64,000 bases of DNA from an uncultured Chlorobiaceae bacterium (GTDB lineage: Bacteria; Bacteroidota; Chlorobiia; Chlorobiales; Chlorobiaceae): NCBI GenBank assembly GCA_903939765.1, contig CAJAIK010000115.1, positions 55,871 through 119,870 of the forward strand, written 5' to 3'. Each line of letters opens with the position of its first letter. Position 1 is the first letter of the stretch. Under the pieces are notes generated by a model, which made no database searches, was not told the DNA's origin, and saw only the letters and a program-made list of their open reading frames with translations. Of the stretch, positions 15,048-55,933 are shown one piece after another. The position numbers and the translations under genes were made by a program.

Positions 15048-16174
15048 TCAGTTAGAGGATTGAGGGCTGAAATTTTCCGGCAACGGGTTTGTTTTCGATG
15101 GGCCGACTATGGAACGCATGGACGAACGCAGTGCGTCAAGCAGACGATCATTCTCAACAGGCTGGCGGATGGCAAAGCGGAAATAGTTTTCCTCAAGGCC
15201 GGTAAAGTTTCGGCAATCCCTGACATAAAGCTGACGCTCGGCAAGCCAGGAGAGCAAAACATAGAGCGGGCTGCCTCCATTCCATTGGGCAAGAAAAAAA
15301 TTGGCTGCACCACCGGCAAGTTTTATCCCTTCAATCTGCAAAAACGAATCAGTTATTCGCTCTCTTTCTGAAAATATCATGGTTCGAACCTCCTCTTCAT
15401 AGGCGCCAAACTCAAGCAGCAACGGGGCAACCGACTCGGCAATGGCATTGACCGTCCAGGGCTCTTTGTAGTGGAGCAATCGCTGAATAATCGTTGGATG
15501 GGCTATGATGGCTCCAAGACGCAACCCCGGTAATGCATAGAATTTGGTGAGTGAATGGAGCACGATGACATTTTTCAGTGCCATTACCCTGTCCATAAGG
15601 GAATTATCGGGAAAGTCGGGAGTGAACTGTATGAATGCCTCATCAAGGATAAACCATTTTTCAGGAAAACGGCTTGCGAGCGCCATGATAATCTCCGGCG
15701 GCACCTCCGTTCCTGTGGGGTTATTGGGATTCGCCACAACAAAGGCGTCGGCAAGAAGCAGAGCCTCGGCCAGCAGCTCAATAGAGGGTAACTGAAACCC
15801 GTTTTCGGCAAGAAGAGGAAGAAAAGTAATCTCTGCTCCGACCGCCCTTCCTGCCCGTTCGTACTCATAAAAGGAGGGTGAGAGCAGGAGCATACGGCGA
15901 AGCCCCAACGCCCTTGGCAGAAGATAGATGCCTTCAGTCGCGCCATTGAGGGGCAGCACCATGGTACCGTTGAAGCCAAACTTTCCTTTATAAAAATCCT
16001 TTATGCCTCGTCCATCAATCGAAGGGTAGCTCTGGAGTGAAAAGTTGTCAAGCGAAAGAGTGCCGATTGGAGGAGCGATCGGACTGATATTGATGCTGAA
16101 ATCAAGCACCGCTCTGCCATCCTGCGTCGCGTGGTTAAGATGCGCTCCGCCATGCTGATGGTGATAAAGAGTGG

Positions 16175-16178
<4 letters not shown>
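15048..16178 (-). CDS. cobD: Threonine-phosphate decarboxylase (class I/II aminotransferase fold)
   Basis: It contains the PLP-lysine motif [15 protein letters not shown]. It lies between cbiB and cobQ. Confidence 0.8.
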
Positions 16179-18339
<2,161 letters not shown>

Positions 18340-23134: not shown

Positions 23135-23214
23135 CCTCTACTGGTTGATTTGTACCGTAGAAGGATAGCTCTGAATTATTATCATTACAATTTCATGATT
23201 TCATGAACGTCCCC
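23135..23214 (-). repeat. R-repeat copy 1 (~80 nt, promoter-like)
   Basis: It aligns with 24292-24364 and 30738-30817. The core is ATTACAATTTCATGATTTCATGAACGTCCCC. It ends 15 nt upstream of the DUF1016 start. Confidence 0.7.
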
Positions 23215-23236
23215 AAGACTTTTTTACCGTTTTTCA

Positions 23237-24291: not shown

Positions 24292-24364
24292 CGTCTTACT
24301 GATACGCAGAAAGGTAACTCTGCATTGTGATCATTGCAAGTTCATGATTTCAGGAACGTCACCT
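24292..24364 (-). repeat. R-repeat copy 2
   Basis: CTGCATTGTGATCATTGCAAGTTCATGATTTCAGGAACGTCACC. It lies ~130 nt upstream of the BRO-Fic gene and abuts the truncated TPM fragment. Confidence 0.7.
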
Positions 24365-24583
24365 CCTCACAGGGCAATTCTGCAACGTCCCATCAACCGC
24401 TACGTTTCGGCCGAAAACCCACCATGAATCCCTACTATCCGACAATGTCCGGTTTACCTCCTGGGAGAGAAGCTGCGCATTGTCCGTGATCCTGCCGGTC
24501 AGATAAGGAACGTCTGCAGCAGGAAGTATCGTGCTGATCATCAGCATGATCGGAAGTAACAGGATGATCAATCGTCTCTTCAT
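24359..24583 (-). pseudogene. N-terminal fragment of a TPM-domain protein
   Basis: A signal peptide plus VPYLTGRITDNAQLLSQEVNRTL matches the start of TPM domains. Similarity is lost after ~50 aa, and the frame runs into the R-repeat. Confidence 0.5.
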
Positions 24584-26123: not shown

Positions 26124-26474
26124 TCAAAAAAAGTACCGTGTTGTTTCCGATGCCTTTCTGTTGAGAGGGTCATGCCCACACAAATCTTTGGATGTCAACT
26201 TCTTTTTGACAACCAGCTTCCGATGTACTCTTTCAAGGAACACCTCTTCTTCACAGGCGATTGACTTGTATCTGTTCTGAAATAGATGGCCGTACCTGTA
26301 ATTGCATCGATTGCAACTGATCGAGTATCCGGCAAGAAACTTCCTCATGAATGCAGAGAGTCCCGGTTGACCGCTTTTGAGAAGGATATGCGCATGATTA
26401 GTCATCAGCGCCAATTTATGCACCGATCTGTCCTTTATATAAGTCATAGATTGGAAAAAACAAATCGGAATCAT
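26124..26474 (-). pseudogene. Fragment of an IS200/REP-associated Y1 transposase (RAYT-like)
   Basis: LMTNHAHILLKSG ... GHLFQNRYKS matches the HUH/Y1 transposase core. The N-terminal half is absent, and the ORF overlaps the 3' end of the 866-aa gene. Confidence 0.6.
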
Positions 26475-29016
26475 TCCAGTTCAAATTTCCATCAATCAAT
26501 GAAAAGCTGGCGAATTTACTTTCGTCCAAATATTTCTTAATCGATGGATGAAGCGATTTTGATAAAAAAGGTTTGAAATCAACAAGTCTTTCATTTCCAT
26601 CGTTAAATCTTATCCGAATTGCATAATCGGACAGATATTTCGCAGAATCAATTTTCAACTTGTCATTATAATCTGTGCATGAGAAATTAAATTTTGTTTT
26701 CCTTTTTTTGCTTGTTTTATACTCATACTGCACACCAAAGCTTACCTTATTTGAACGAAATTTAGATAACTTTTCAAGAAAAAAACTATTTAACTTTTCT
26801 TCATTTGGGTGATTTAAACCTTCGTATTTTAGTTTACATATTATTTGAGTTATTTTATAATTACCTTTACCATGCTCATTATGGCCAGTGATATTTGCCT
26901 TTTCGTTTATTTCTTTTCCATTTGGAATATCCACTGTTATAGACTCTAATACTGGAGCATCGTAAAACACTTTATCTACCTCTTTTTTTCTTCCCCATTC
27001 TTGCGCTGTATCACAATACATTAATAAAAACTCCAGTGGAAACGACTCAAAACAAATATAGCCAATGTTAGTATCCTCTTTAAGCGTTTTATAAGTACAT
27101 GAATTATGCATAGATATTGCTAATGCAGCAAGATATATCTCTACAATTCTTTTACTCGTAGAACCATGATCGCCAATATAGTTACCCTCTATAGTTTTCA
27201 TAAAAAGATTTATTAATAATATGGCGCTTAGCACTCCATGATCTTGGTTGTCCTCTATAGCTTGAATATAATTTTTTAGCAATTCAGTTTTATTCGTCCG
27301 TTTATCTTCATCTTGAGAAACAAAAAATCTTGTCAATTCTGTTATTGTATCAATATAGCTTGCCTTATTTTTCTTACTTGACAAAATGCTTCCCCAATCT
27401 ATATGAACAGGGATATCCGCAAGTAAATTATCTGATATAAATTTTTGCATTGTCTTATCATATTGCTGAAAAATATATGCAATATCATGAAATAGAGCAA
27501 TTAAAACCCATATTCTCAGCACCCCCTCATCATCAATTTCTATTTCTTGATATTCTTCAACATTTTGAAGCCTTTTATTAATCTTTTTCTTTATTTCACC
27601 TATACCAATAGCATTTATAAATATATATCCCATAACAAAAACATGAAATTGATGCATAAAATGATCTCTATATTTTTCTGTACTATATAGCATCAGCTTT
27701 TCATGATCCATAAAATCAATTAATTTTTTCTCTGTAAGATCATAATACTTCTCCATATCAACAGACTTAAAAACATCCTTAATATAAAGCATTGTCCTTA
27801 TCATTATTTCTTCATAACCTATGTATGTGTGTCGTTGGAAAACAAAAAACAAATGTTTTGTCAAATCATAAATCTTCCTATTACCCTTTATTTCTGGATT
27901 TACTTTATTACTGATATTTATTATAGCATCAATCATTTTTTTTCCTTGAAATAATTGATCATAAGAACCTATATCAGTAATTCCAAGACTTACCTCAATA
28001 ACTTGCAAACACAATTGATTTATAACTTTCAACAAATCTTCTTTTCCTTTTATTTCAATAGTATCCGGCGCCTTGTTCATCAACTCACGTATATCTTTAT
28101 ATACTTGATTTCGTCCTTCTTCTGAATCGTTATAATTATCAAGCCTTACAACACCTTTTATTTCATTTGATATATTATCACAAATAGGAATAACAACAAG
28201 CTCTTTACATTTACTGTGTATCCCTCTCTCTGTATCATCATTTTTTCCACGTACCTTAGCACCTATACTATTCGCATTCTTACTGCCATCACTATTTTTA
28301 TCATATATTTGATTCTCTATCATTCTTACACAAATGTTGCGTCTCGCAACCATAGCAGTTATACCTTCTCCTTTTATATGCATAACTTCTTTACCAACTA
28401 TTTTATCTATCTTATCAATGACTATATATTTATTTGGCCTAGTTTCGTAATCATATGTCCAGTGTTGTTTTTTTTCTTTTTTTTCACCATAAGAATCCTC
28501 TACTCCAATGAATTTCAAAACCTTATAAGGAGTATCATTTGCGTCATACACTATTACCCTATTAATGGCGCCAGCAGATTTATCTCTTCCCTTTTCATTA
28601 GTAAAAGTAATTTCAACCAATTCTTTAGTGATTTTTGAATCATCTTCTTCATTAGTAAGCCTGATGATATCGTCTTCTTTGATATCTATTTTTTCATTTT
28701 CAAAAGTAAACGTAAATTTGTGTTCGCTTTCTTGTTTTTCAATTTTCCCTTTTTTACCAGCAAATTCGATTACACCACTTTCATGATGAGAGCCGTTATC
28801 ACCGTTATTAACTTTATATTCGAATATTATTTTCCCCTCTGCAAATCTTTTTTTAAACTCATCTTCTTTTTCGTTTTTATGCATTGAGCCTGGCACTGAA
28901 ATCAAGTATAATGCACACGCATCATAACTAAAATATTTTTTTACTGTTAATAAAAACGATTTTATGGGCTCCCTAATTTCAAACCTTTTGTTCTCAATAG
29001 AAGTCATATTTTTCAT
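26416..29016 (-). CDS. 866-aa multidomain protein: split GAF-like N-domain, HD-superfamily-like central domain, C-terminal DUF2442
   Basis: GAF-like: SYDACALYLIS ... GEGITAMVARRNICVRM ... ELVVIPICDNISNEIKGVVRLDN. HD-like: RDHFMHQFHVF, ALFHDIAYIFQ, DHGVLSA, ISMHN, MYCDTAQEWGR. DUF2442-like: YAIRIRFNDGNERLVDFKPFL...GNLNWNDSDLFFPIYDLY. The gene is strongly AT-rich. Confidence 0.7.
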   Translation of the reverse strand: MKNMTSIENKRFEIREPIKSFLLTVKKYFSYDACALYLISVPGSMHKNEKEDEFKKRFAEGKIIFEYKVNNGDNGSHHESGVIEFAGKKGKIEKQESEHKFTFTFENEKIDIKEDDIIRLTNEEDDSKITKELVEITFTNEKGRDKSAGAINRVIVYDANDTPYKVLKFIGVEDSYGEKKEKKQHWTYDYETRPNKYIVIDKIDKIVGKEVMHIKGEGITAMVARRNICVRMIENQIYDKNSDGSKNANSIGAKVRGKNDDTERGIHSKCKELVVIPICDNISNEIKGVVRLDNYNDSEEGRNQVYKDIRELMNKAPDTIEIKGKEDLLKVINQLCLQVIEVSLGITDIGSYDQLFQGKKMIDAIINISNKVNPEIKGNRKIYDLTKHLFFVFQRHTYIGYEEIMIRTMLYIKDVFKSVDMEKYYDLTEKKLIDFMDHEKLMLYSTEKYRDHFMHQFHVFVMGYIFINAIGIGEIKKKINKRLQNVEEYQEIEIDDEGVLRIWVLIALFHDIAYIFQQYDKTMQKFISDNLLADIPVHIDWGSILSSKKNKASYIDTITELTRFFVSQDEDKRTNKTELLKNYIQAIEDNQDHGVLSAILLINLFMKTIEGNYIGDHGSTSKRIVEIYLAALAISMHNSCTYKTLKEDTNIGYICFESFPLEFLLMYCDTAQEWGRKKEVDKVFYDAPVLESITVDIPNGKEINEKANITGHNEHGKGNYKITQIICKLKYEGLNHPNEEKLNSFFLEKLSKFRSNKVSFGVQYEYKTSKKRKTKFNFSCTDYNDKLKIDSAKYLSDYAIRIRFNDGNERLVDFKPFLSKSLHPSIKKYLDESKFASFSLIDGNLNWNDSDLFFPIYDLYKGQIGA

Positions 29017-29124: not shown

Positions 29125-29162
29125 GGAAAACAAATATACGATTACAAACAATACACGTCAAG
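29125..29162 (-). promoter_or_regulatory. Promoter-like element (Bacteroidetes-type TTG-N20-TATATTTG) upstream of the 866-aa gene
   Basis: The minus-strand reading is CTTGACGTGTATTGTTTGTAATCGTATATTTG. It shares a 15-nt identical core, AAATATACGATTACA, with 30612-30626. Confidence 0.4.
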
Positions 29163-30553: not shown

Positions 30554-30609
30554 TGGAAAACTGCAAGGGTTATAGGAACCTCTGAGTAGAATAACTCGTT
30601 TTGCAAAAA

Positions 30610-30642
30610 GGAAATATACGATTACAGCCAAAGCACCGCAAG
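30610..30642 (-). promoter_or_regulatory. Promoter-like element upstream of the rhuM cassette genes
   Basis: The minus-strand reading is CTTGCGGTGCTTTGGCTGTAATCGTATATTTCC. It has the same 15-nt core as 29132-29146. Confidence 0.35.
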
Positions 30643-30737: not shown

Positions 30738-30817
30738 CCTCTACTTGTTAGGTTAGTATCGTAAAAAATTAACGCTGCATTGCGGTGATTGCAAGTTCAT
30801 GATTTCAGGATTGTCCC
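30738..30817 (-). repeat. R-repeat copy 3
   Basis: CCTCTACTTGTTAGG..CGTAAAAAATTAACGCTGCATTGCGGTGATTGCAAGTTCATGATTTCAGGATTGTCCC. It starts 16 nt from the end of attC-like site A. Confidence 0.7.
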
Positions 30818-30833
30818 TTCATCCCCTAATTGC

Positions 30834-30990: not shown

Positions 30991-31596
30991 TTATTTATTG
31001 GTTTCAATTAATTCAAAAATCAACTCTGTTAATATTGCTACTTCACTTTCAATAGTCCCTTTCATATATCTTTCGTAAACACTTTTATTGTCGGGAGGGT
31101 TAAGGTTTAAAGTCAAACCCTTTTCTAACGCTAACATTCTTACAAACTCCCTTTGCGTTCGCCCGTTTCCTTCTCTAAAGGGGTGTAAATAATTTACATT
31201 GTCCAAAATTTCTGCTAACTTCTCCGCTAAATGCTTTTTGTTGTTCTTTGGAATTTTCTTGAATTCAGTTATTAAAGTTTCAACGTATCTGTAAGCATTG
31301 TCAAAATGTGTAGTTGGAAAAAATTGTTTTCTGTCTTTGCTAATTTCAACAATCCGTTTTTTTCCAGCTCAAGCGTATATGTCTTGAAATAGTTGTTTGT
31401 GAATTTCAAAAAGACTTTCAATTCCCTTAATCTTTATCAGATTTTCATAAAGTTCTTGTAGTCGTTTAGTAACAGCTCCGCTCTCAACAAATAATAATAC
31501 ATCAGGGTCTGTAATATTTTGAATATTTCTTAGTAGTCCTGTCTTTGGGTCAGTATAGGTGTAGTCAGGGTCAATGTATTTATAAGAATTAGACAT
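30991..31596 (-). pseudogene. Fic/Doc-family toxin (FicT/VbhT-like) interrupted by a single in-frame TGA
   Basis: ORFs 31369..31596 and 30991..31206 are in the same frame. My translation across the gap is ...QDIYA*AGKKRIVEISKD...NVNYLHPFREGNGRTQR. The stop at 31369-31371 sits where Fic proteins normally have W (YxWAG). The Fic motif is intact. Confidence 0.75.
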
Positions 31597-31810
31597 ATGC
31601 TTTTTCTTTAGCTAATATCACCAATTCACTCATTGAAATTTTCCCAGCGACATAGTCTCTGATTATTTCAATTCCTTTCGGAGTTGGGTTAAAACCTTCA
31701 AACATATTACTTCCTAAAGCACTTGCTGTGCTTTCTAATGTTTTCAAGTCTAAAAATTCCACTCCCATTATGGTTAGTTTGGCTCGGTCAATTTCAATTG
31801 TGTTAAACAT
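31589..31810 (-). CDS. VbhA-like Fic antitoxin
   Basis: 73 aa carrying the inhibitory S-x-x-x-E-G motif (SNMFEGF). It overlaps the start of the Fic gene by 8 nt. Confidence 0.7.
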   Translation of the reverse strand: MFNTIEIDRAKLTIMGVEFLDLKTLESTASALGSNMFEGFNPTPKGIEIIRDYVAGKISMSELVILAKEKAYV

Positions 31811-33026: not shown

Positions 33027-34091
33027 TTACACATTTTTTGGCTTTGGTAGTCTTGATATAGCTTCACCTGCTCCCCTATACAATGGTAATCCTAATAAAT
33101 TCAAAGTTTCACAATGTGTCGGCTCTGGAAATTGATAATTATGTAAATCTTTTGATGCTATGAAAATTAATCTCCTTCTCTTTTGTGGCGTACCATAATC
33201 GGCAGCCAAAAGTTCTCTATGAGTTACCTCATATCCAATTTTATCAAAGGACTGGTAAATCAAGTCTATCATATTAACAGACTTTACCTGCGCCATCCCG
33301 TAAACATTTTCCATAACAACAACTGATGGAGATAAATATGAAACATGGTCAATGAAATTTGAATAAAGCTTACCAAGTTGGTCGCTAACAGCATTTTGTT
33401 TACCCGCAACACTAAACGGTTGGCATGGTGGACCGCCAATAATTATGTCAGGATTTCCACCGACTACCTTTTTCACTGTTTCTGGATCTAGTTTTCTGAT
33501 ATCAGCGAGATGAAAATTCCATTCGGGACGGTTAGTGTCAATAGTTGCTTGTGCCCACTTTTCGATATCAGTACAAAATTTGGTTTCAAATGATATGAAA
33601 TTATCTTTTGCCTGCTCGAAACCTAAGTCAAGTCCACCTGCTCCTGAAAAATATGATGCAATTGTTTTGATTCCACCTTGATTTTTTCGCTCAAAATATT
33701 TAGCAACTGAGCCCGCAATCGCTTTGCCTAAATTAACTGGAACAGCATTTCCAATTTGTTTTTGAATTTGACCTAACGTGCCTTTGAATATCCAGTCATG
33801 TGGAAAATCTTGAAGACACGCGGCCTCTCTTGGGGTTATATAACGGTCTTCGGTTGGATGAACAAACTTGTTAAATATAAAAGCCGTGACTGTTAAGGAA
33901 GGTTTGTCCTTCTCTAATCTTAAAAGTCGCATGTTTGGCCCACCTGTTTTTTTATCTCCTTTTCTTTCGAAGCTTTCATGTTGGAGATGTTTGGGAAGAT
34001 CTCCCATCTTACCCCCAGGAGCCAAATGCTTTATCCTTTCTAAAACAAGACCTGAATACTCTCTTGTAATATGATTTGGTATTTCCTTCAT
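33027..34091 (-). CDS. DNA (cytosine-5)-methyltransferase with circularly permuted motif order
   Basis: The order along the protein is a TRD-like region, IX (RYITPREAACLQDFP), X (GNAVPVNL), then I (FSGAGGLDLGF), IV (GGPPCQPFS), VI (ENV) and VIII (QKRRR). Confidence 0.85.
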   Translation of the reverse strand: MKEIPNHITREYSGLVLERIKHLAPGGKMGDLPKHLQHESFERKGDKKTGGPNMRLLRLEKDKPSLTVTAFIFNKFVHPTEDRYITPREAACLQDFPHDWIFKGTLGQIQKQIGNAVPVNLGKAIAGSVAKYFERKNQGGIKTIASYFSGAGGLDLGFEQAKDNFISFETKFCTDIEKWAQATIDTNRPEWNFHLADIRKLDPETVKKVVGGNPDIIIGGPPCQPFSVAGKQNAVSDQLGKLYSNFIDHVSYLSPSVVVMENVYGMAQVKSVNMIDLIYQSFDKIGYEVTHRELLAADYGTPQKRRRLIFIASKDLHNYQFPEPTHCETLNLLGLPLYRGAGEAISRLPKPKNV

Positions 34092-35203
34092 ATTTCTTTT
34101 CCGCCTTGGATTGAATCTGTTAAGTTAATGATATAATCAAAAACATATCTCAAGTCTTCTCGTTTTAGATATGTCAAGGATTTATCAGTTACTAAATCTC
34201 CTTCGTTGCCCCATAGCATACCTTTAAATGGATCTACATAAACTTCCCCATGCCGCAACGCTGGTAAGTTAGAGATTATGGCAGTTTTAACATTTTGATG
34301 TTTGTATTTTGTGCCAATCTTAAGAACCTGATAAATACCTTTTTTGATATCATCAGTTCGATCCATTCCAGCGCTAGTTTTGCTGTCACTAATTGATTCT
34401 CCTTGTGGCCATCCATCCTTTTCCTTGGCAACGTTTGGCGGTGCCCCTGAAGCATTCGCTAAATAATAAAACTTAGAAGTTCTATCCTTTTCGGCATATG
34501 CGACTTTAGTTTTTTGCCAAATTTTGAATGAGGATTCAAGTTCTTTTAAGTTACCTTTATCTTCTAAATGATCTGCAAAGGGTTTAAATGGCCAATTTTC
34601 AGATTTGACTTTACCTAAGTGGATATATGATTTGTCGTGTAGATAGATAGCAGAGTTTAATTCTCTGAACTGTGAACTTGTTAATGATATTTTGGAGTGA
34701 GCAAGATTTGTAGTTTTGGGAATTTGAAATAGAAGTGGAAACGTGAGTAATGGTGCAGATTTTACTTCCGCTAAAATTACGAAGCCATTTTTATGTTCTA
34801 TTAATGCATCTGCAACTTCTGTCCCTCCAATAGCGAAAACGCATTTAAAATCGTCAAATAAAATCTCAATAAATTTTAGAATCATTTCGCTGCTTAGTTT
34901 GCCCAAAGCACCCGATTGCGGTTTTGCAGCTTTTTGATAAGTCCATGTTTCATTCTTTTCATAACAAGGACTGCATAGATTTATAAAACCCAAATGGGCA
35001 TTATAACTTTCCGGGCACGAAGGACAGGTTTCAACATATTTTTCAATTCCCGATGTTGAGTCGATAAAAGCAAGTGACATGCAGATGTCAAAAATAAAGG
35101 CTCTGTATTCTGGCGGTTTACTTTTAGTCCACTTGATTATTCGCACAGCATCATCATGCCATGGATATTCTTTGAGGGGTACTTTTTTATTCAGTTCTTC
35201 CAT
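34088..35203 (-). CDS. Putative type II restriction endonuclease (PD-(D/E)XK-like)
   Basis: 371 aa. Its stop overlaps the methyltransferase start (ATGA). There is a candidate D...E-x-K motif (VADALIEHKNGFVILAEVKS). I recognise no other family. Confidence 0.5.
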   Translation of the reverse strand: MEELNKKVPLKEYPWHDDAVRIIKWTKSKPPEYRAFIFDICMSLAFIDSTSGIEKYVETCPSCPESYNAHLGFINLCSPCYEKNETWTYQKAAKPQSGALGKLSSEMILKFIEILFDDFKCVFAIGGTEVADALIEHKNGFVILAEVKSAPLLTFPLLFQIPKTTNLAHSKISLTSSQFRELNSAIYLHDKSYIHLGKVKSENWPFKPFADHLEDKGNLKELESSFKIWQKTKVAYAEKDRTSKFYYLANASGAPPNVAKEKDGWPQGESISDSKTSAGMDRTDDIKKGIYQVLKIGTKYKHQNVKTAIISNLPALRHGEVYVDPFKGMLWGNEGDLVTDKSLTYLKREDLRYVFDYIINLTDSIQGGKEI

Positions 35204-37276: not shown

Positions 37277-38731
37277 TTACAAATTATCAAAGGGGCTGGA
37301 AATTTTTAGTAAACTCTGTTCGCATACATGGGTATAGATTTCTGTCGTCTTACTGCTCTTATGCCCTAAGAGCTCTTGTATGTATCGAAGATCAGTTCCC
37401 GCTTCCAGTAAATGTGTTGCATAAGAGTGCCGCAACCAATGAAGCGTTACTGGTTTTTTGATTTTTGCATGATCGAGTGCATGTTTTAACACTTTTTGCA
37501 AGCTGGTTTCGCTGTACTGTGTACCAGGTTCTTGACCCTCAAACAACCAAATCCTGGGGCGATATATTTTATAATATTCCCGCAACATTACAATCACTTT
37601 GTCCGATATGGGAATGACTCTGTCTTTTTTTCCTTTTGCATTGACTATTATCAATAAATGCCTTTTCGCATCAACATTCTCAGGTTTGAGATTCAACAAC
37701 TCTCCCCGTCGAAGACCACAGGCATAAATCAAGCTCAACATCGTACGATGTTTGAGGTTCTGTGATGCATGAAGTATAGCTGCAACATCCTCCTTGCTCA
37801 GCACGTTGGGCAGCTTATGTTCTGGTCTTGGCCGCTCGATCTGTTCTGTTATGAGCTTTGAACCTTGAATTGTTTTGAAAAACAATCTTGCTGCGTTAAC
37901 GGTCTGGTTTTGATATGATTGGCTTAACTTCTTCGGTAGCATAAACTGGTGAACGAATCGCACCATATCATCGTTGGTCGCTTCGGTACTCCTTTTGGGT
38001 TTAATAAACCTCAAAAAAGTGGTAATGGCTTGTGTATAGGTCTTTATCGTTGATTCGCTGTATCGCTTGTGCTCCATCCACTGTTTGAAGGCGGCAATTT
38101 CATCATGGTTGACTTTGTCCAACAACGGCAAATCGGTAATAACTTCGTTTGCCGGGTAGTTCAATTTCGGATTTTGCGGTAGCGCAATTACGGTTTTTAT
38201 ATTTGTGATACGCTGACCAAAGTAATTTCTTAACAAGTCAATATTTTTGCCGTAGTTCGGTATGACCCAGCAAAAATTATTGCTGTTCCACCTCACATAT
38301 TTGAAGGTACGAATGAACTGTATATCCGTCTCATTCTTAGGCATTGTAACGGTAATTTGTTTCGGGGATATTTCGATAGCGATTCCGTTGTGTTGCGTAA
38401 CATTTTGCAGATCTGCTTTTATCGCAGTTTTCACTTCAGATTGCGCCTTTACCGAAGGTGCTGGCACCGGTGGTTCATTGGTAGCTTCCGTTAGCTCTTC
38501 GGTACCTGACTTATTTGTTGAACCTGCAGGATCTGGTACGACTATATCCGGAAATAGCTTCATAAATTCGCCAAAAGCTTCCTCGGTGAACGGGATATGC
38601 CAAGCTCTGAGTGTCTTGCTCCAGGCAGCGCCTTCAATATGTCTTATCTTATTTATAATGAAATCATTATAGGCAAATACGAGTTTCAACCGATCCTCGC
38701 CCCGGTAATTTATTTTGCTGGTCTGAATCAT
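37277..38731 (-). CDS. Tyrosine recombinase/integrase (Xer-like catalytic domain with a ~290-aa N-terminal extension)
   Basis: It has the catalytic residues ACGLRRGE (R), KGKKDR (K), HWLRHSYATHLL (H-x-x-R) and LLGHKSSKTTEIYTHV (H, Y). The N-terminus holds two similar units (AAWSKTLRAWHIP and RWNSNNFCWVIP). The gene is AT-rich. Confidence 0.9.
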   Translation of the reverse strand: MIQTSKINYRGEDRLKLVFAYNDFIINKIRHIEGAAWSKTLRAWHIPFTEEAFGEFMKLFPDIVVPDPAGSTNKSGTEELTEATNEPPVPAPSVKAQSEVKTAIKADLQNVTQHNGIAIEISPKQITVTMPKNETDIQFIRTFKYVRWNSNNFCWVIPNYGKNIDLLRNYFGQRITNIKTVIALPQNPKLNYPANEVITDLPLLDKVNHDEIAAFKQWMEHKRYSESTIKTYTQAITTFLRFIKPKRSTEATNDDMVRFVHQFMLPKKLSQSYQNQTVNAARLFFKTIQGSKLITEQIERPRPEHKLPNVLSKEDVAAILHASQNLKHRTMLSLIYACGLRRGELLNLKPENVDAKRHLLIIVNAKGKKDRVIPISDKVIVMLREYYKIYRPRIWLFEGQEPGTQYSETSLQKVLKHALDHAKIKKPVTLHWLRHSYATHLLEAGTDLRYIQELLGHKSSKTTEIYTHVCEQSLLKISSPFDNL

Positions 38732-38975: not shown

Positions 38976-39773
38976 TCACGCCCCCGTCTTCACCGGTAAC
39001 ACCAGCCGGAATCCCCGGAAATCGTTAACCGCTTTGGAAACAACAAACGAGCGCTGCGAACAGCGGAAGGCGAACTTGTCGGGATAACGCCAGCAGCCGC
39101 CACGTTCCTGGCGGAGAGATTCTTCACCGGAGGTGATGTTTGCGGAATCGGTTTCTTCGTGCCAGACGGAACACCACTCCATGACGTTGCCGCTCTGGTT
39201 CCAGGTTCCGTAGCCGGAGACCCCTTCGGGATAGGCGTAGGCCGGGGCAACAGAATCCGCCCCCCGGTTGTTCCGGTTCCGACAGTTGTTTTCATCCCAC
39301 CGGTCTCCCCACGGGTAGATTGATCCTTCCGGCCCGCGTGCGGCCTTTTCCCACTCGGCTTCCGTGGGCAATCGGCATCCCGCCCAGCGGGCGTAGGCTT
39401 CTGCGTCGTCCCAGTTGATGAGCACGACCGGGTAATCGTCGAACTCTTCGGGACAGCCATCTTCGTGCCAGACCGAAAGTGAGTCAATCCTTGCGCCGAT
39501 GTTTGGTGGCCGATGGCCCGTAGCCTGTATGAAAGCCCTGTACTGGCGATTGGTGACGGCATAGACTGAAATGTAGAATGCGTCCAGGCAGACGGTGTGC
39601 TGCGGGCTCTCTTTGTCGAAGCCGTCTCCCATGGTGAAACTTCCTGCGGGAACAAGCACCATGGGAGAACTGTCCTGTTCGTTGACGATTACCGGAGGCA
39701 GCTTGCCGCCGGAAGGACGGAGCGCGAGTCTTCTGAGTTCGGTAAGGATTTCGTTATGTGCTGGTGTATTCAT
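38976..39773 (-). CDS. FGE-sulfatase (SUMF1/EgtB/PvdO) fold protein, cytoplasmic
   Basis: MVLVPAGSFTMG, YAVTNRQYRAFI, INWDDAEAYARWAGCRLPTEAEWEKAARG, GNVMEWC and RGGCW...FRGFRLV match the fold. It has no signal peptide. I prefer the ATG at 39773. Confidence 0.8.
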   Translation of the reverse strand: MNTPAHNEILTELRRLALRPSGGKLPPVIVNEQDSSPMVLVPAGSFTMGDGFDKESPQHTVCLDAFYISVYAVTNRQYRAFIQATGHRPPNIGARIDSLSVWHEDGCPEEFDDYPVVLINWDDAEAYARWAGCRLPTEAEWEKAARGPEGSIYPWGDRWDENNCRNRNNRGADSVAPAYAYPEGVSGYGTWNQSGNVMEWCSVWHEETDSANITSGEESLRQERGGCWRYPDKFAFRCSQRSFVVSKAVNDFRGFRLVLPVKTGA

Positions 39774-39795
39774 AGTACACTGTGTTCTCTTGTTT

Positions 39796-41328
39796 CTATG
39801 ACGCTGCCAAAGCATTCCGGTCGTCTGAGGCGTTGCGCGCCTGTCCGTTTACGACCATCGTCCTCAACTGTTCGATGTGCTCTTGATGTGATGCCGAAAG
39901 GGGAACCATCTCTGCGGCTGCGTTGAGAAGATCCTCCGTTTCCAGTTCCCGGCGGTTGTCGCGGAATGCGGGAAACATGGCATCGTTGACCAGCGCCTGA
40001 AGTTCGGCGCCGACGAACCCCTCGGTTGCCGATGCAACCGCGGCAAGGTTGAAGCGCTGCGAAAGCATGGTATAGCCGCGTTCCCTGAGGTGGACTTCGA
40101 GTATTTTTATCCGCTCGCCGTGGGTGGGAAGATCGAGGAAAAAGACCTCGTCAAACCGGCCTTTGCGCAGGAGTTCCGGGGGAAGACGCCGAACGTTGTT
40201 GGCGGTGGCGAATACGAATACCGGGGCAGTTTTTTCCTGCATCCAGGTAAGAAAGGTCGCAAAGACCCGGCTTGCCGTGCCGCTGTCGCCCATGGAGCCG
40301 GCAAAGGCTTTTTCGATCTCGTCAACCCAGAGCACGCAGGGAGCGATGACCTCGGCAATCCGGATGGCTTCGCGAATATTCTGTTCGCTCGAACCGAGCA
40401 GACCGCTGAAGATGGCTCCGACATCCATTCTCAGCAGCGTCATCCCCCAGTGGCCTGCGGTTACTTTTGCACAGAGGCTTTTTCCGGTTCCGGGAATCCC
40501 GATGAGAGCCACCCCCTTCGGCATGCTGAGGCCATATTCGCGCGCATCCTGGCTGAACGCTTCCTGGCGCTCGTCGAGCCACCCCTTCAGAGCGCCAAGT
40601 CCGCCGACGTTGTTCATGGATCCGGTATAGGGGTAGAGTTCGAGAGCGCCGCTTTCGCGGATGATGTGACGTTTTTCGTTCAGCACCTGCCGGACGCTCC
40701 GTTCGTCGAGCCCATGGCCTCCTGCAACCACGATGGCTTTGCGAAAGGCCCTTCCCGCTTCGACGATGGAGAGGCCGAGCGCACTTTCGACCAGACGTTC
40801 GCGCAAACCGTGCGTGGCGTTTTCAAGCGATCGCGTCGAGCGGGTTTCCCGATCGAGCAGTTCGAGAATCTGTTTGCCGTCGGGCTTGCCGACATCGATG
40901 GTTGGTATGTCGTGACGGAGTTCGACGGGAAGCGCAAACTGGGGGCTGGTGATGATGATGTTCACCGTTTCGCTGCGGAAAGGAAGACGCGATGCGAGGT
41001 TCCGCAGCATGCGCGAAACACGTCGGCTATGTTCCCAGAAATGGTGGAAGTCTTTGAGCACGAATGTTGCGGAGCCCTTGTAGTCGTCGATGATGTCGAG
41101 CACCGATTCCGGGGTGGCGGCAAGTTTGCTGAAGGTTGACGCTGGTTCTCGCAGGTGGCGGAACTGGTCGCCGATATCCCAGGTGATGAGCCCCATGCCT
41201 TCAGGCCACCGGGCTGATTGCGACCAGCCGGAAAGAGTGCGCATGGCATCCTCTTCATCGATGGTTGCGAGGTGTATGACGGCTACCCGCGCGTCAACAT
41301 TCAGTTTGAGTTCGTCGAGCCAGGCCAT
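39796..41328 (-). CDS. Classical-clade AAA+ ATPase with a unique ~240-aa N-domain
   Basis: Walker A GIPGTGKS, Walker B CVLWVDEIEKAF, sensor-1 FVFATANN and the RKGRFDEVFFLDLP arginine-finger region. Confidence 0.85.
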   Translation of the reverse strand: MAWLDELKLNVDARVAVIHLATIDEEDAMRTLSGWSQSARWPEGMGLITWDIGDQFRHLREPASTFSKLAATPESVLDIIDDYKGSATFVLKDFHHFWEHSRRVSRMLRNLASRLPFRSETVNIIITSPQFALPVELRHDIPTIDVGKPDGKQILELLDRETRSTRSLENATHGLRERLVESALGLSIVEAGRAFRKAIVVAGGHGLDERSVRQVLNEKRHIIRESGALELYPYTGSMNNVGGLGALKGWLDERQEAFSQDAREYGLSMPKGVALIGIPGTGKSLCAKVTAGHWGMTLLRMDVGAIFSGLLGSSEQNIREAIRIAEVIAPCVLWVDEIEKAFAGSMGDSGTASRVFATFLTWMQEKTAPVFVFATANNVRRLPPELLRKGRFDEVFFLDLPTHGERIKILEVHLRERGYTMLSQRFNLAAVASATEGFVGAELQALVNDAMFPAFRDNRRELETEDLLNAAAEMVPLSASHQEHIEQLRTMVVNGQARNASDDRNALAAS

Positions 41329-41404
41329 GCTGCGTTAAGTTTTTCTTGTTTAGCCATCAGGGCATCTCTTAAAATTGTCATGAGCGGTTCGAGTGAGCTG
41401 TCCA

Positions 41405-43024
41405 TCAGAGTTTCACCACCGGCAGATCGCTTACCGGCAACGGAAGTCGCGAGCCGTCCCGCAACAGGATCCAGGAACGATTGTTCTCCTCCGTATCCCG
41501 CAGCCAGAGCGTGAGGCGGCGGTTGCTGTCTACCCCGAATCCTGCTATAAAGCGCCGCTCTCCCGAACGGCAGGGCGGCACGGCATGGATGAACTCGCTG
41601 TCTTCGGGATTGAGGGGCTTATGCCGACTCTCCTCTCGCTCCCCTTCCCGTACCGGACGAAGCCCGTCGGCCCCGTTGACATAGGAGATCAGCGGGCGGC
41701 TCATCGACGACCGCTCATAGATAACCAGCCCGAGCGTATCCTGATGGTCCGAAGCGGCCTTGATATATTTGCTGCATACCGGTTTCCCTGTCGGGTAAGG
41801 GGTACCGCGTGGAACGACGGGAACCAGTTCGAAATCCCGAAGTTCCCGGTTCCAGCTCCGCAGACAGTAATCGTGAGTCAGCGTCTGGTCGAAGATACCG
41901 CCATCGAAGCGGCATGCCCCTCTGGCAATGGCTTCGAACGGATTACCGGCATGGACGTCGCTGAGGGGAAAGAACTCCCGGATTTTCTCTTCGATGCCGG
42001 GCAGCAGGCTGCTTCCCCCCACAAGAAAAATCCCCTTGAGTTCCTCCTTGCGGATGCCGGCCCTGTCGCGTGCCTGATCGAGAGCGCGGTCGAGCGTGCG
42101 GATGATGTGCTGGTAGAGGTTGTTCCTGTCCGGCTCCCGTTTTTTTTCAAGCGCCTCCTTCAGGTTGCGGGAAGTGAGCGTGACCTCGATGAGTCGGCCG
42201 GTAAAATCGTTATAGCGGGTGAAGGATGCTTGCTCGCTGCCGTTCGAGATAGCAATTTTCGCCTGCTCAATCGCTTCGAGCAGGGAGGGGCCGATCGAGG
42301 CGATATCGTCATCGGTGAGCTTCTCCTCTTCCTGGATATGTTCCAGCAGCCAGTTATCGATCATAATCCCGCCAATCTCCTCGCCAGCCCGGCCCAGTAT
42401 TCTGCATTTCGCATGTCCGGCACGCAGCAGATCGGTACGAACGACCGAAACATCGAGAGTGCCTCCGCCGAAATCCACGATGCAGTAGGGTTCGCGGTCG
42501 AGAACATGATCGATGTAACCGAGCATACAGGCGGTTGCTTCGTCGATGAAGGTGATCCCGCCCGGAAACCGTTTTATCGCCGCTTCGCGAAGCCAGTCGA
42601 TATAGTGATCGAAGGCTTCGACAGGGACTGTCAGCACAACTTCCTCATCGATGTCGCCGAAATAGCCGCGCACAAACATCAGGATGCGGTCGACGAGCGT
42701 GTCTGCTGCATGGCGGGGGTAAATAACCCTGCCATTGACGCGCCGCCCGCGATTGGCACCACCGTTACGAAGCATATCCATTTTCAGCCATCTGAACGTA
42801 CCCGGATGATTGGCAACTCCCGCTGCGTCAACCTGGCTGCCGACAAGAAGAGCGCTCTCCACGGCGAAATGAATGACGGAGGGAATAACCCGCGCAGGCT
42901 CCGATCCCGGCTGCGGATAGAAGATTCCGAGGTTGGGCAGGTCGGGAGTCTCTATGTCGTTCAGGGCTTCGTTCCAGCGTGCGACCACGCTGTTGCATGT
43001 CCCGAAATCAAAAGCGAGAGCCAT
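41405..43024 (-). CDS. Hsp70-family (DnaK-like) ATPase, divergent and lid-less
   Basis: AFDFGTCNSVV (phosphate 1), IVDFGGGTLDVSVV (phosphate 2) and FLVGGSSLLPGI (adenosine). The C-terminal ~150 aa are only loosely SBD-beta-like and there is no helical lid. Confidence 0.8.
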   Translation of the reverse strand: MALAFDFGTCNSVVARWNEALNDIETPDLPNLGIFYPQPGSEPARVIPSVIHFAVESALLVGSQVDAAGVANHPGTFRWLKMDMLRNGGANRGRRVNGRVIYPRHAADTLVDRILMFVRGYFGDIDEEVVLTVPVEAFDHYIDWLREAAIKRFPGGITFIDEATACMLGYIDHVLDREPYCIVDFGGGTLDVSVVRTDLLRAGHAKCRILGRAGEEIGGIMIDNWLLEHIQEEEKLTDDDIASIGPSLLEAIEQAKIAISNGSEQASFTRYNDFTGRLIEVTLTSRNLKEALEKKREPDRNNLYQHIIRTLDRALDQARDRAGIRKEELKGIFLVGGSSLLPGIEEKIREFFPLSDVHAGNPFEAIARGACRFDGGIFDQTLTHDYCLRSWNRELRDFELVPVVPRGTPYPTGKPVCSKYIKAASDHQDTLGLVIYERSSMSRPLISYVNGADGLRPVREGEREESRHKPLNPEDSEFIHAVPPCRSGERRFIAGFGVDSNRRLTLWLRDTEENNRSWILLRDGSRLPLPVSDLPVVKL

Positions 43025-43118
43025 TAATTCAAACGGTTATCCTGATCATGAATGCAATCATGCGTCTGCCCGGGCCTTTGCCACTATTTTCGCTCATATC
43101 GTGAGTCGGGTTTTCTGT

Positions 43119-44474
43119 TTACCACTCCACATCCGTCAGTTCCTCGGTCTCCACGGCATTTTTTTCTGTTGCGTCGTCATTACTGTCGACGGTGATCAGA
43201 CCGCGAAGAAAATAGCCCTGCAGGACTTTGAGCAATTGCAGGAGTTTATGCTGTAGCTCTGCCGACTGATCAGCCGGTCCGGCACCGGCATGAACTCTTC
43301 CGGACAGTGAGCTGCTCTCTTCAAGCGAACCAGGCAAGCGTGTCGTCAGTATGGCGGCCACGATATTGTCCTGTGGCTGGAGCCAGCAGACATGCTCCTG
43401 ACGGGAGCTTGCATCCGGCACGGTAAACAGGTACTGAAGCGCGAGTTTTTCAGGCCACGTGCCGTTCAGGGAGATCTCCTGCAGCCTGTTGCGGGGAATC
43501 GATCCGCGCTGCACACCTGAAAAGAGTGCGCCGGCCCGTCTGAAAGGGTCCGGGCTTGAGAGATCCTGCTGCAGCAGTTCGTCCGTTCGATGCTGTTCCG
43601 TCCAGAAAGAGAAAATATCTCTTGTGCCGGGCAGAGCGGAGGGTCGGGATTCCGGTATAAGCCCGGCCAGTTCACGATAAAGAGCGACAGAGTGCTCGAC
43701 AACGGCTTTTTTTGAGGGACTTTTTGGCCTTCCGCCGCCCTCTTCCCAGAACGCGATAACCTCGAGCGCAGAGGTGAAGGGCAAGCCATGCAGCCGGTCG
43801 AGCAGTGCGTCGTGATCCCCGCAGAGTTTAAGGGCCTCGATGACCAGTTGCGGGTCATGCCCCTCCTTGACGGCATGATCGTAAGCTGCGACAAGCCGGG
43901 GATCCTGACTTTTCAGGACTGTTGTGCTGATACGCTGCCTCTGGGCGCCGGAAGCGGCAAGCCAGGCTTTTTCAAAAATGGAGTAATCGGGATCTTCAAG
44001 ATCGAGGTAGCGCCCCGGATTGCCTCGCACAAGCCCGAAAAGGGTATCCATTTCAAGAGCGGGGGCATGGCGACCATTCGCTTCTATCATGTCGGCGATT
44101 TCGTCCCGGTCAAGGAGAGTCCAGAGCATGAACACAAGGCCGTTGCCCCAGTCGTTTTCCGGCATGGCAACGAGGGCCTGCAGAAGATCCGGCTGAAGCG
44201 TTTCGGAAGAGTGCGTCCTCTTCAGCAGCTCTTCGAAGCGACACGATTTCCAGTAGTTCCACAGAGCGCTGTGCATGACTGGCTCGTTGCCATGCTGCAA
44301 AAGCAAAAGACGCTGGAATATCGTATCTGCTTCCGGATGCCCCTCTTCTACCGCGCGCGCCAGCTTGACCGCAGCATCCCGGCTATTGCTCGAAAAAAGG
44401 CGTTCCACCGCCCTCTTCCTGAGGATGCTGCCGAGGAGAGGGGTTGTGGCGAAAAGGTGTTTTTCTGCTTGCAT
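43119..44474 (-). CDS. Helical-repeat (HEAT/ARM-like) hypothetical protein, first gene of the Hsp70-like operon
   Basis: A ~450-aa Leu/Ala-rich helical sequence with an acidic tail, EELTDVEW. Candidate starts are the ATG at 44474 or the upstream ORF start at 44525. Confidence 0.55.
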   Translation of the reverse strand: MQAEKHLFATTPLLGSILRKRAVERLFSSNSRDAAVKLARAVEEGHPEADTIFQRLLLLQHGNEPVMHSALWNYWKSCRFEELLKRTHSSETLQPDLLQALVAMPENDWGNGLVFMLWTLLDRDEIADMIEANGRHAPALEMDTLFGLVRGNPGRYLDLEDPDYSIFEKAWLAASGAQRQRISTTVLKSQDPRLVAAYDHAVKEGHDPQLVIEALKLCGDHDALLDRLHGLPFTSALEVIAFWEEGGGRPKSPSKKAVVEHSVALYRELAGLIPESRPSALPGTRDIFSFWTEQHRTDELLQQDLSSPDPFRRAGALFSGVQRGSIPRNRLQEISLNGTWPEKLALQYLFTVPDASSRQEHVCWLQPQDNIVAAILTTRLPGSLEESSSLSGRVHAGAGPADQSAELQHKLLQLLKVLQGYFLRGLITVDSNDDATEKNAVETEELTDVEW

Positions 44475-44641
44475 TACTGATCCGGCGTCAATGAATGATC
44501 GAGTAAGGGAGTATACATATATCACTCTTACTTAAGCAAATTACAGGGCTAAACTTTGACAGGGTTCCCAACGGAATCTGTTTGCATGAACTTCATTCTG
44601 TCACTCGACGGTAATATGTAAACCAGTGAGCGGGATGCAGA

Positions 44642-55471: not shown

Positions 55472-55933
55472 TTATGTGTTGTTCCTCAAGGATGCTGCAG
55501 TTGCCTCCGCATTTGTAGCACGCGCAACAGCAGCAACTTCTTTTGTGACTATAGTTTTACCTATAGGAAAGATTGCAATCCCGGCAAGCTTTAAATGCTG
55601 TATTCCAAAAGGAATGCCAATGATAGTTATAAAATTCAATATCGCAGAAGAAACATGACCTAATGCAAGCCATAAGCCAGCAAAGATGAACCAAATGATA
55701 TTGCCAAGCAAACCTAAGCCACCTGTACCAATATCTTTTTTTTGTGTAAGTTCATTTCGACTTATAGCTTCTTTTCCGAATGGGAAAAACGAGAAGTTGC
55801 CAATAACAAAACAAGCTCTGCCCCATGGGATGCCAACTACCGTAATAAAAGCGATTGCGCCAACAAACCACCACGCAAGCCCCATGATAATACCACCTGA
55901 AAGAAACCACAGGAGGTTACCTATTGCCCTCAT
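55472..55933 (-). CDS. yccF: YccF-domain inner-membrane protein
   Basis: Duplicated YccF motifs: GNLLWFLSGG...ITVVGIPWG and GNIIWFIFAG...ITIIGIPFG. Confidence 0.8.
   Translation of the reverse strand: MRAIGNLLWFLSGGIIMGLAWWFVGAIAFITVVGIPWGRACFVIGNFSFFPFGKEAISRNELTQKKDIGTGGLGLLGNIIWFIFAGLWLALGHVSSAILNFITIIGIPFGIQHLKLAGIAIFPIGKTIVTKEVAAVARATNAEATAASLRNNT

Follow-up and report, generated by a model that had tools for sequence, protein, structure and literature searches.

A horizontally acquired gene of an uncultured Chlorobiaceae bacterium encodes a GAF sensor joined to a conserved, putatively HD-type His/Asp core

RESULTS

A foreign, AT-rich gene for a sensor-plus-enzyme protein

We studied a gene on the minus strand (26416-29016) of a 64,000-nucleotide (nt) stretch of DNA from an uncultured Chlorobiaceae bacterium (GenBank assembly GCA_903939765.1, contig CAJAIK010000115.1, forward-strand positions 55,871 to 119,870). 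The whole stretch is referred to as the window, and coordinates without a prefix are those of the window. A preliminary description, made from the letters alone, had placed here a single open reading frame (ORF) of 866 amino acids (aa) in a strongly AT-rich block, and both points are borne out. The ORF list contains this frame, and the guanine-plus-cytosine (GC) content is about 0.29 for the ORF and 0.26-0.31 over 26500-29000, compared to 0.42-0.53 in both flanks. A public protein, P0001 (863 aa, starting at Met4), is 100% identical to the window protein, and its ORF, with unchanged neighbors, recurs on several independent public contigs. An 85%-identical copy in another genome (locus L029) has a GC content of about 0.29, between flanks of 0.46-0.47. 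The ratio of nonsynonymous to synonymous substitution rates (dN/dS) is 0.21 for the gene as a whole. We conclude that the AT-rich gene is real, was acquired horizontally, and encodes a sensor-plus-enzyme protein.

A word-indexed search returned 39 homologous clusters, and two alignments were used throughout: A1, with 37 homologs of the close family, and A2, with 33 more distant members. More than 35 full-length homologs align colinearly with residues 1-780. The encoded parts are, in order, a GAF sensor, a helical linker, an HD-like core, a beta domain, and a DUF2442 tail. An AlphaFold model from the homolog alignment (predicted local distance difference test [pLDDT] 80.9, predicted template modeling score [pTM] 0.81) lays the protein out as a GAF domain at aa 14-300 with a beta-rich subdomain at 62-165, long helices at 301-440, an all-alpha domain at 441-677, an alpha/beta domain at 678-780, and a tail at 786-866. 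DUF2442 is the sole Pfam match of the window protein, and a PDB sequence search with the whole protein gave no match. The parts of the gene are as follows.

26416-29016, minus strand: complete ORF, stop codon included, 866 aa (ORF list, 100% identical public protein P0001, and AlphaFold model)
28834-28977, minus strand: GAF domain, N-terminal part, aa 14-61, with the DACALYLI strand; aligns with GAF-annotated homologs
28522-28833, minus strand: lineage-specific, hypervariable, beta-rich insertion within the GAF domain, aa 62-165; about nine predicted strands, high pLDDT
28117-28521, minus strand: GAF domain, C-terminal part, aa 166-300, with motifs GEGITAMVARR and VVIPI...GVVRLDN
27697-28116, minus strand: conserved helical linker or regulatory region, aa 301-440, HLFFVFQRHTYIGYEEIM; predicted long helices
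26986-27696, minus strand: all-alpha His/Asp core, putative binuclear HD-type catalytic domain, aa 441-677
26677-26985, minus strand: family-specific C-terminal alpha/beta domain, present family-wide, aa 678-780; predicted strands and one helix
26419-26661, minus strand: recently fused DUF2442 tail, aa 786-866, Pfam PF10387

In the linker, L389, F390, R395, G400, and R407 are invariant and dN/dS is 0.12. The alpha/beta domain (aa 678-780) has no match among PDB sequences.

A GAF domain with a fast-evolving insertion

The GAF-like fold proposed for the N-terminal region is borne out indirectly, and the assignment is established by way of the homologs and the modeled fold. The window protein's own sequence has no Pfam GAF match; 10 of the 37 aligned homologs match Pfam GAF_2 or GAF (PF13185/PF01590; best E=2.8e-9), and relatives with several GAF domains have GAF matches at E=1e-22 to 3e-28. 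In Foldseek, the full model matches isolated GAF structures (6x88_A with probability 0.96, 3rfb_A with 0.92, 1f5m_B with 0.80, and 4mmn_A with 0.77), with modest E-values. The C-terminal part of the domain is well conserved, with E217, T220, R225, and G288 invariant and a dN/dS of 0.10. GAF domains are known to bind cyclic nucleotides.

The domain is split by an insertion, as had been described, although this insertion is about 104 aa long rather than about 150, and its richness in Lys and Glu is modest (26%, compared to 20% for the whole protein). It is limited to the eight closest relatives, and a few other homologs have unrelated insertions at the same site. In relatives whose cores are 95-97% identical, the insertions are only 44-50% identical, and dN/dS is 0.65 in the insertion versus 0.03 in the core, making this by far the fastest-evolving part of the protein. 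No match to the insertion was found among PDB sequences.

A strictly conserved His/Asp core

All of the His/Asp motifs quoted in the preliminary description are present, and they vary little or not at all among the 37 close and the 33 more distant members: Y449-R450-D451-H452-x-x-H455; W503...H510-D511-x-x-Y514; D592-H593-G594; H637; and C668-D669-x-x-Q-E-W-G-R676. Within these motifs, H455, H510-D511, H593, H637, and D669 keep their order and are invariant in both alignments, and H510-D511 is the sole H-D dipeptide of the protein. In the model, these residues lie at the starts or ends of successive helices. With a dN/dS of 0.03, the core is under strong purifying selection. Two-metal enzymes of the HD superfamily have metal ligands in this same series, H, HD, H, H, D.

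Weak sequence similarities of the core point in the same direction. Pfam HD is the sole recurrent weak match, found for 3 of the 33 distant members (best E=0.023) and at E=0.14 for the window core, and the family consensus aligns with positions 3-89 of the Pfam HD profile at E=0.11. The PADLOC Cas3'' HD model (Cas3a2) matches aa 444-528 at E=0.057. When the family profile was aligned with Escherichia coli Dgt by hhalign, H455 fell on the catalytic His and H510-D511 on the H-D (P=0.027), and the best alignments to YedJ, SpoT, and Cas3 also put "lfHDI" on their H-D. The alignments to single E. coli HD proteins are individually weak, and those to GlnD and YfbR are out of register. When 6 HD and 36 non-HD proteins of E. 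coli were ranked by their hhalign match to the family profile, ranks 1, 2, 3, 5, 7, and 8 went to HD proteins (Mann-Whitney test: P=3.6e-6 for scores, P=3e-4 for length-corrected hhalign P-values). A homolog search that started from E. coli Dgt yielded nothing but dGTPases with over 87% identity, and this set was therefore useless for profile-profile comparison. The core modeled by itself has a pLDDT of 87.5 and a pTM of 0.90. We consider it likely that the core is a divergent HD-superfamily domain.

A recently acquired DUF2442 tail

The C-terminal DUF2442 proposed earlier is confirmed by a Pfam match above the cut-off (PF10387, aa 789-863, E=8e-7, 29.6 bits versus 23.9), and stand-alone DUF2442 proteins are 50-66% identical to the tail. 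What did not hold is the proposal that a three-domain fusion defines this protein. Among the aligned homologs, the tail is limited to the window protein and P0002. At locus L094 (protein P0003, 83% identical), the enzyme ORF ends with TAG, and DUF2442 continues directly in frame and is then truncated. The junction codon is TAG in L094 and CAG in L029, and it has been removed by a 9-nt in-frame deletion in the window. With a dN/dS of 0.70 and a pLDDT below 50, the tail is weakly constrained and evolves almost neutrally. Because it is restricted to two proteins, broken by a stop codon in L094, and near-neutral, the three-domain fusion is not the defining architecture of the family, and the junction is recent and probably dispensable.

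A patchy, uncatalogued family

When 1.84 billion representatives were searched exhaustively, 1048 matched at E<1e-3, many of them stand-alone DUF2442 proteins. The region of aa ~430-680 is a mobile module that is found by itself (in proteins of 330-400 aa) or preceded either by a receiver domain or by one to three GAF domains; given these combinations, the core behaves like a signaling output domain. The family is distributed patchily over Chlorobiales, Bacteroidales, Thermodesulfobacteriota, Methanosarcina, and Methanoperedens. In plasmid records, tblastn found no family match. The family is essentially not viral: scans of viral contigs gave 0 and 1 matches, tblastn against phages matched the DUF2442 part alone, and Foldseek of the model against viral structures found nothing. 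The core family is outside Pfam and uncatalogued.

Some members appear to be decaying. In metagenome-assembled genomes (MAGs) of an unclassified bacterium (L013:7734-9896) and a Methanosarcinaceae archaeon (L017:7881-9806), the family gene is broken up into a succession of three ORFs and is probably pseudogenized, and L017 holds a second, fragmentary copy at ~15766-16309. No contig location was found for family protein P0196.

Relatives within type III CRISPR operons

Two relatives of the window protein are embedded in CRISPR loci: P0039 (926 aa, locus L025) and a 1066-aa protein from a Bacteroidales MAG (locus L015), which are 39-47% identical to each other. At both loci, a conserved same-strand block next to a CRISPR array comprises a ~160-aa protein, the family gene, Cas6, and then a reverse transcriptase-Cas1 fusion or its remnant. 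The two loci are as follows.

L025:67-11858: type III-B locus, with the block directly after Cmr1-Cmr6 and Cas10b
L015:1-14203: type III-D locus, with the block directly after Csx10, two Cas7-IIId, and Csx19

The effector genes of the two loci are unrelated, indicating that the block moved between subtypes. The L025 Cas10 (570 aa) keeps GGDD and has no H-D dipeptide, and the L025 operon contains no CARF or SAVED gene. This is the combination that was used by Hoikkala et al. to seek new effectors. The family is not among their four candidates; it is absent from the two type III accessory-gene surveys that were consulted, neither of which mentions GAF (PMC11229360, PMC6546367).

Within L049:85-10426 (and L047), a truncated family ORF of 417 aa that ends after the H-D motif is separated by ~560 nt from a CRISPR array of 96 repeats with a flanking Cas1.

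Promoter-like element, transposase remnant, and surrounding island

Two further features adjoin the gene.

29133-29161, minus strand: promoter-like element TTGACG-N17-TATATT(TG), matching 10 of 12 positions in a consensus scan, with the -10-like part TATATTTG
26124-26474, minus strand: truncated remnant of a REP-associated/IS200-like Y1 transposase (RAYT-like); context, not part of the gene

A promoter-like element ahead of the gene had been described, and it is real as sequence; its -10-like part presumably corresponds to the TAnnTTTG -7 box of Bacteroidota-type promoters, which it fits. Promoter-like matches are not enriched in the region (12 found versus 16.4 expected in shuffles). The element is kept upstream of the L029 homolog and recurs upstream of the RhuM gene, at 30607-30642. 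The shared sequence, CTTGNNGTG...GTAATCGTATATT, lies at 30607-30642 (RhuM), 29127-29162 (family gene), and L029:824-853 (homolog), which suggests a regulatory element common to RhuM and family genes that may have been carried along with island genes.

The overlap of the gene's 3' end with a truncated RAYT-like fragment is likewise real. The ORF at 26124-26474 (116 aa) overlaps the gene by 59 nt in a different frame and matches Pfam Y1_Tnp below threshold (E=4e-4; 20.9 bits, cut-off 23; positions 34-109 of the 121 in the profile). An intact Y1 transposase with 48% identity to this remnant, L008:11196-12182, lies 1.3 kb downstream of family homolog P0014, so that a Y1 transposase is associated with a family gene in two unrelated contexts (the window and L008).

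The gene is part of a mosaic of ~16 kb between a tyrosine recombinase gene (37277-38731) and trmB. This island contains small unknown ORFs, a Dcm methylase, a VbhA antitoxin with split Fic fragments, and RhuM, followed by the family gene and then the RAYT remnant, an Rpn-like gene, a Bro-N/Fic protein, and a YhcG PD-(D/E)XK nuclease. In L094 the family gene again follows RhuM, and in L029 it is ~400 nt after the FGE-sulfatase gene, the one that in the window precedes the integrase. Homology between loci spans the promoter-like element, leader, and ORF and ends at the stop codon, and from these limits we conclude that the gene is a compact mobile unit in a variable hotspot. One homolog elsewhere adjoins a large serine recombinase.

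The preliminary description had set the gene in a cassette-like context downstream of an attC-like site, and this part was not confirmed. In a repeat comparison, made without a dedicated attC model, no repeat or attC-like element flanked the ORF; the copies of a 64-nt repeat flank other genes. These direct repeats (23156-23219, 24305-24368, and 30760-30823; 77-80% identical) immediately precede the genes for the YhcG nuclease, Bro-N/Fic, and RhuM but not the family gene, and they may serve in regulation or recombination or represent a miniature element. The recombinase that borders the island (484 aa, with an N-terminal extension of ~210 aa) has the same orientation as the island genes. It scores 199 bits against the integron integrase model TIGR02249 (cut-off 265) and 219.5 against a XerA/integron model (cut-off 220). 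A 484-aa ORF near a Chlorobiales homolog (L010) was considered as a relative of this integrase and rejected, as the two are not related.

Other parts of the region were noted. A VbhA-type antitoxin ORF (31589-31810) is followed by short ORFs at 31369-31596 and 30991-31206, the latter with only the end of a Fic domain; from its sequence, 30991-31810 looks like a disrupted Fic toxin beside an intact antitoxin. Within 33027-35203, the Dcm-type cytosine methylase, which has a ~140-aa N-terminal extension, overlaps by 4 nt an upstream 371-aa ORF (34088-35203) that has no Pfam, NCBIfam, or PDB match, and the two are a candidate restriction-modification pair. Next to the island, a run of genes on one strand (38976-46336) codes for an FGE-sulfatase-like protein, two ATPases (one AAA+ and one Hsp70/actin-like), a 468-aa protein for which no match was found, and a 564-aa protein. 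The ORF at 43119-44525 has no PDB annotation, and the run may be a multigene system.

DISCUSSION

A proposed GAF-gated effector

We infer that the window protein is a GAF-gated, probably two-metal HD-type phosphoesterase that acts as a stand-alone, horizontally acquired effector, most likely in defense against mobile elements, and we assign this reading a probability of about 0.5. The GAF domain would be the sensor, and the fast-evolving, beta-rich insertion may add to or alter recognition. The conserved helical linker would couple this sensor to the all-alpha domain, where H455, H510, D511, H593, H637, and D669 match the ligand set of a two-metal HD phosphohydrolase. Phosphoester hydrolysis would be switched on when a small nucleotide-like ligand, or some other trigger, acts on the GAF domain, and candidate substrates are nucleotides, cyclic or oligo-nucleotide signals, and nucleic acid. 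The biological setting is most likely conflict with phages or mobile elements, with the protein serving as a single-gene effector. The DUF2442 tail is a recent add-on that is probably not essential to the mechanism of the family.

A single-gene defense role, as the preliminary description had suggested, is plausible. Consistent with it are the patchy taxonomic distribution, the foreign composition, the hypervariable sensor insertion, the island context, and the two CRISPR-embedded relatives. Co-location with cas10 and RAMP genes is absent for the window gene and present for the L025 and L015 relatives, and CRISPR linkage supports an immune role of the family only by extension. Given its relatives inside type III CRISPR operons, the window gene is a credible, unproven immune or signaling effector.

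Several results weigh against this reading. No defense model of PADLOC-DB v2 matches the protein, the sole hits being at chance level (E=0.057 and E=0.71), and there are no cas genes and no nucleotide cyclase near the gene in the window. Of approximately 10 annotated homolog contexts, most are housekeeping neighborhoods, and the majority of homologs are singletons that lack defense neighbors. A metagenome scan of 64 loci, with insensitive local Cas probes, yielded one further CRISPR-adjacent copy, a truncated one, and therefore CRISPR linkage is a trait of particular members and not of the family. The receiver and multi-GAF fusions fit ordinary signal transduction equally well. As regards the catalytic domain, Foldseek of the core-only model against PDB gave a best E of ~1 (top match Cas3 4q2c, probability 0.08), and neither the family profile nor the core profile retrieved anything from PDB sequences. 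A core-family profile found 62 proteins in a 5.8-billion-protein set, none of them labeled as Pfam HD, and thus gave no transitive connection to HD. No single method gave a statistically significant HD call, and no curated threshold was passed. Of the two folds named in the preliminary description, GAF was found, whereas HD was recognized neither by Pfam at a significant level nor by structure comparison of the core; the view of the core as an HD phosphohydrolase holds for the ligand pattern and for the weak signals, all of which are to HD, but not for a significant profile or fold match.

Alternative explanations

The protein could instead be an ordinary signaling enzyme, a GAF-regulated phosphodiesterase (PDE) for a cellular second messenger comparable to GAF-PDEs and to HD-GYP proteins with GAF or receiver domains, with no part in immunity. 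We consider this the main alternative, although somewhat unlikely. The same core is joined to receiver and multiple GAF domains, which is typical of signaling outputs, many homologs reside among housekeeping genes, and the best whole-model Foldseek matches are GAF-containing phosphodiesterases (PDE6C, E=8e-4, and PDE2A) and HD-GYP protein 4mcw (E=7e-3). However, these matches vanish once the GAF domain is removed from the query and are therefore GAF driven, and the protein has no HD-GYP or class I PDE signature. An enzyme of this type would also sit uneasily with a family that is non-syntenic, patchy over phyla and domains of life, foreign in composition, mobile as a unit, and pseudogenized in some genomes, with a hypervariable sensor insertion and two relatives conserved within type III CRISPR operons.

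The remaining alternatives concern the protein itself. The central domain may not be HD at all but a new alpha-helical metal-binding or regulatory fold whose His/Asp likeness is superficial, as could be argued from a high-confidence core model that has no significant PDB match, from the lack of a significant Pfam, NCBIfam, or PADLOC model for the core, and from empty PDB profile searches and remote homologs devoid of Pfam HD annotation. Against this, H, HD, H, H, D follow one another in the order and at the spacing seen in two-metal HD proteins and occupy the same helix-end positions, the weak matches all belong to one superfamily (Pfam HD, Cas3'' HD, Dgt in register, and Cas3 as top Foldseek match), and in the comparison with E. 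coli proteins the family profile told HD and non-HD proteins apart. Foldseek is, in general experience, less sensitive on all-helical domains. We judge a non-HD fold to be decidedly unlikely. An artefactual ORF, arising by chance read-through or from decayed genes that became fused, is scarcely credible, and for aa 1-780 it is refuted by colinearity with the full-length homologs, by low dN/dS (0.21 overall and 0.03 in the core), by confident AlphaFold models, and by the identical ORF on several independent contigs. The gene does abut a truncated transposase, and for the DUF2442 tail a recent junction is the better description: the codon is TAG in L094, the fusing mutations differ in L029 and the window, and this segment is near-neutral and poorly modeled.

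Significance and comparison with known systems

If the proposal of a GAF-gated HD-type effector is true, the family would be an uncatalogued branch of the HD superfamily, comprising hundreds of 50%-identity clusters without a Pfam model, and would provide a new type of sensor for immune effectors. The window gene, which is compact and mobile, has its own promoter-like element, and encodes a sensor surface that evolves fast, would then be a good candidate for phage-resistance testing. The family protein would be the obvious candidate effector of the two type III operons, with their cyclase-competent, HD-less Cas10 and no CARF or SAVED, and would offer a testable handle on non-CARF signaling in type III systems. 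A more far-reaching version is that the GAF-plus-HD-like family as a whole consists of unrecognized, nucleotide-signal-activated immune effectors. In that case GAF would be a third sensor, beside CARF and SAVED, for type III Cas10 signals, the HD-like domain would be the executioner or a degrader of the signal, and stand-alone members, such as the window protein with its hypervariable sensor insertion, would be single-gene defenses that directly sense a phage-derived cue. We put this forward as speculation and think it unlikely to be right.

Among known systems, the GAF-regulated phosphodiesterases PDE2, 5, 6, 10, and 11 resemble the window protein in having an N-terminal GAF domain, long helices, and an all-alpha His/Asp phosphoesterase domain (here putative). 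In contrast to these enzymes, the window protein has one GAF domain with an insertion and an extra C-terminal beta domain, is prokaryotic and mobile, and reads HDIAYIF where class I PDEs have the signature HD[LIVMFY]xHx[AG]xxNx[LIVMFY]. HD-GYP proteins with GAF or receiver domains (RpfG type; PmGH, PDB 4mcw) share the logic of a GAF or REC sensor with an HD-type output, and their H, HD, H, H, D set, typical of two- or three-metal HD sites, is as in the window core. The HD-GYP motif HHExxDGxGYP is absent, however; there is no GYP anywhere in the window protein, which has ISMHN at the corresponding position and no significant match to Pfam HD_5 or HD.

The HD nucleases of Cas3/Cas3'' and Cas10 have a motif style similar to that of the window core (h-h-HD-I-G/A, followed by H, H, D). 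The faint PADLOC match is to Cas3'', Cas3 4q2c is the top, non-significant Foldseek match of the core, and the type III locus L025, which contains a family relative, has a Cas10 without an HD domain. The window core is not fused to a helicase or to Cas10, and the similarity is not statistically supported. With dGTPase- and SAMHD1-type defense enzymes, the window protein has HD-type chemistry in common (here putative), and Dgt aligns in register over the first two motifs. Unlike these enzymes, it has no R-x-x-H-S-x-x-V motif, no dNTPase C-terminal domain, and no significant similarity to them, and regulation would be by the GAF domain rather than by allosteric dNTP sites.

The tail recalls the DUF4160/DUF2442 toxin-antitoxin pair DhiT/DhiA (PMC8198452, PMC12065111). 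The C-terminal 80 aa of the window protein are a bona fide DUF2442, scoring 18.5 bits against the NCBIfam DhiA model (cut-off 200), but unlike DhiA this DUF2442 is fused to a large enzyme and weakly constrained. A DUF4160 partner was considered and rejected, there being no ORF of the H-x-P-P-H-x-H type in the window or in L029.

The CARF and SAVED effectors of type III CRISPR systems and of cyclic-oligonucleotide-based antiphage signaling systems (CBASS) have the same layout of nucleotide sensor and effector enzyme in a single polypeptide, which is predicted here. In the window protein, the sensor is a GAF domain, and there is no cas or cyclase partner. The layout of a sensor plus an HD-type effector is already known; judging from its sequence, what would be new in this protein is the uncatalogued catalytic family beneath that layout.

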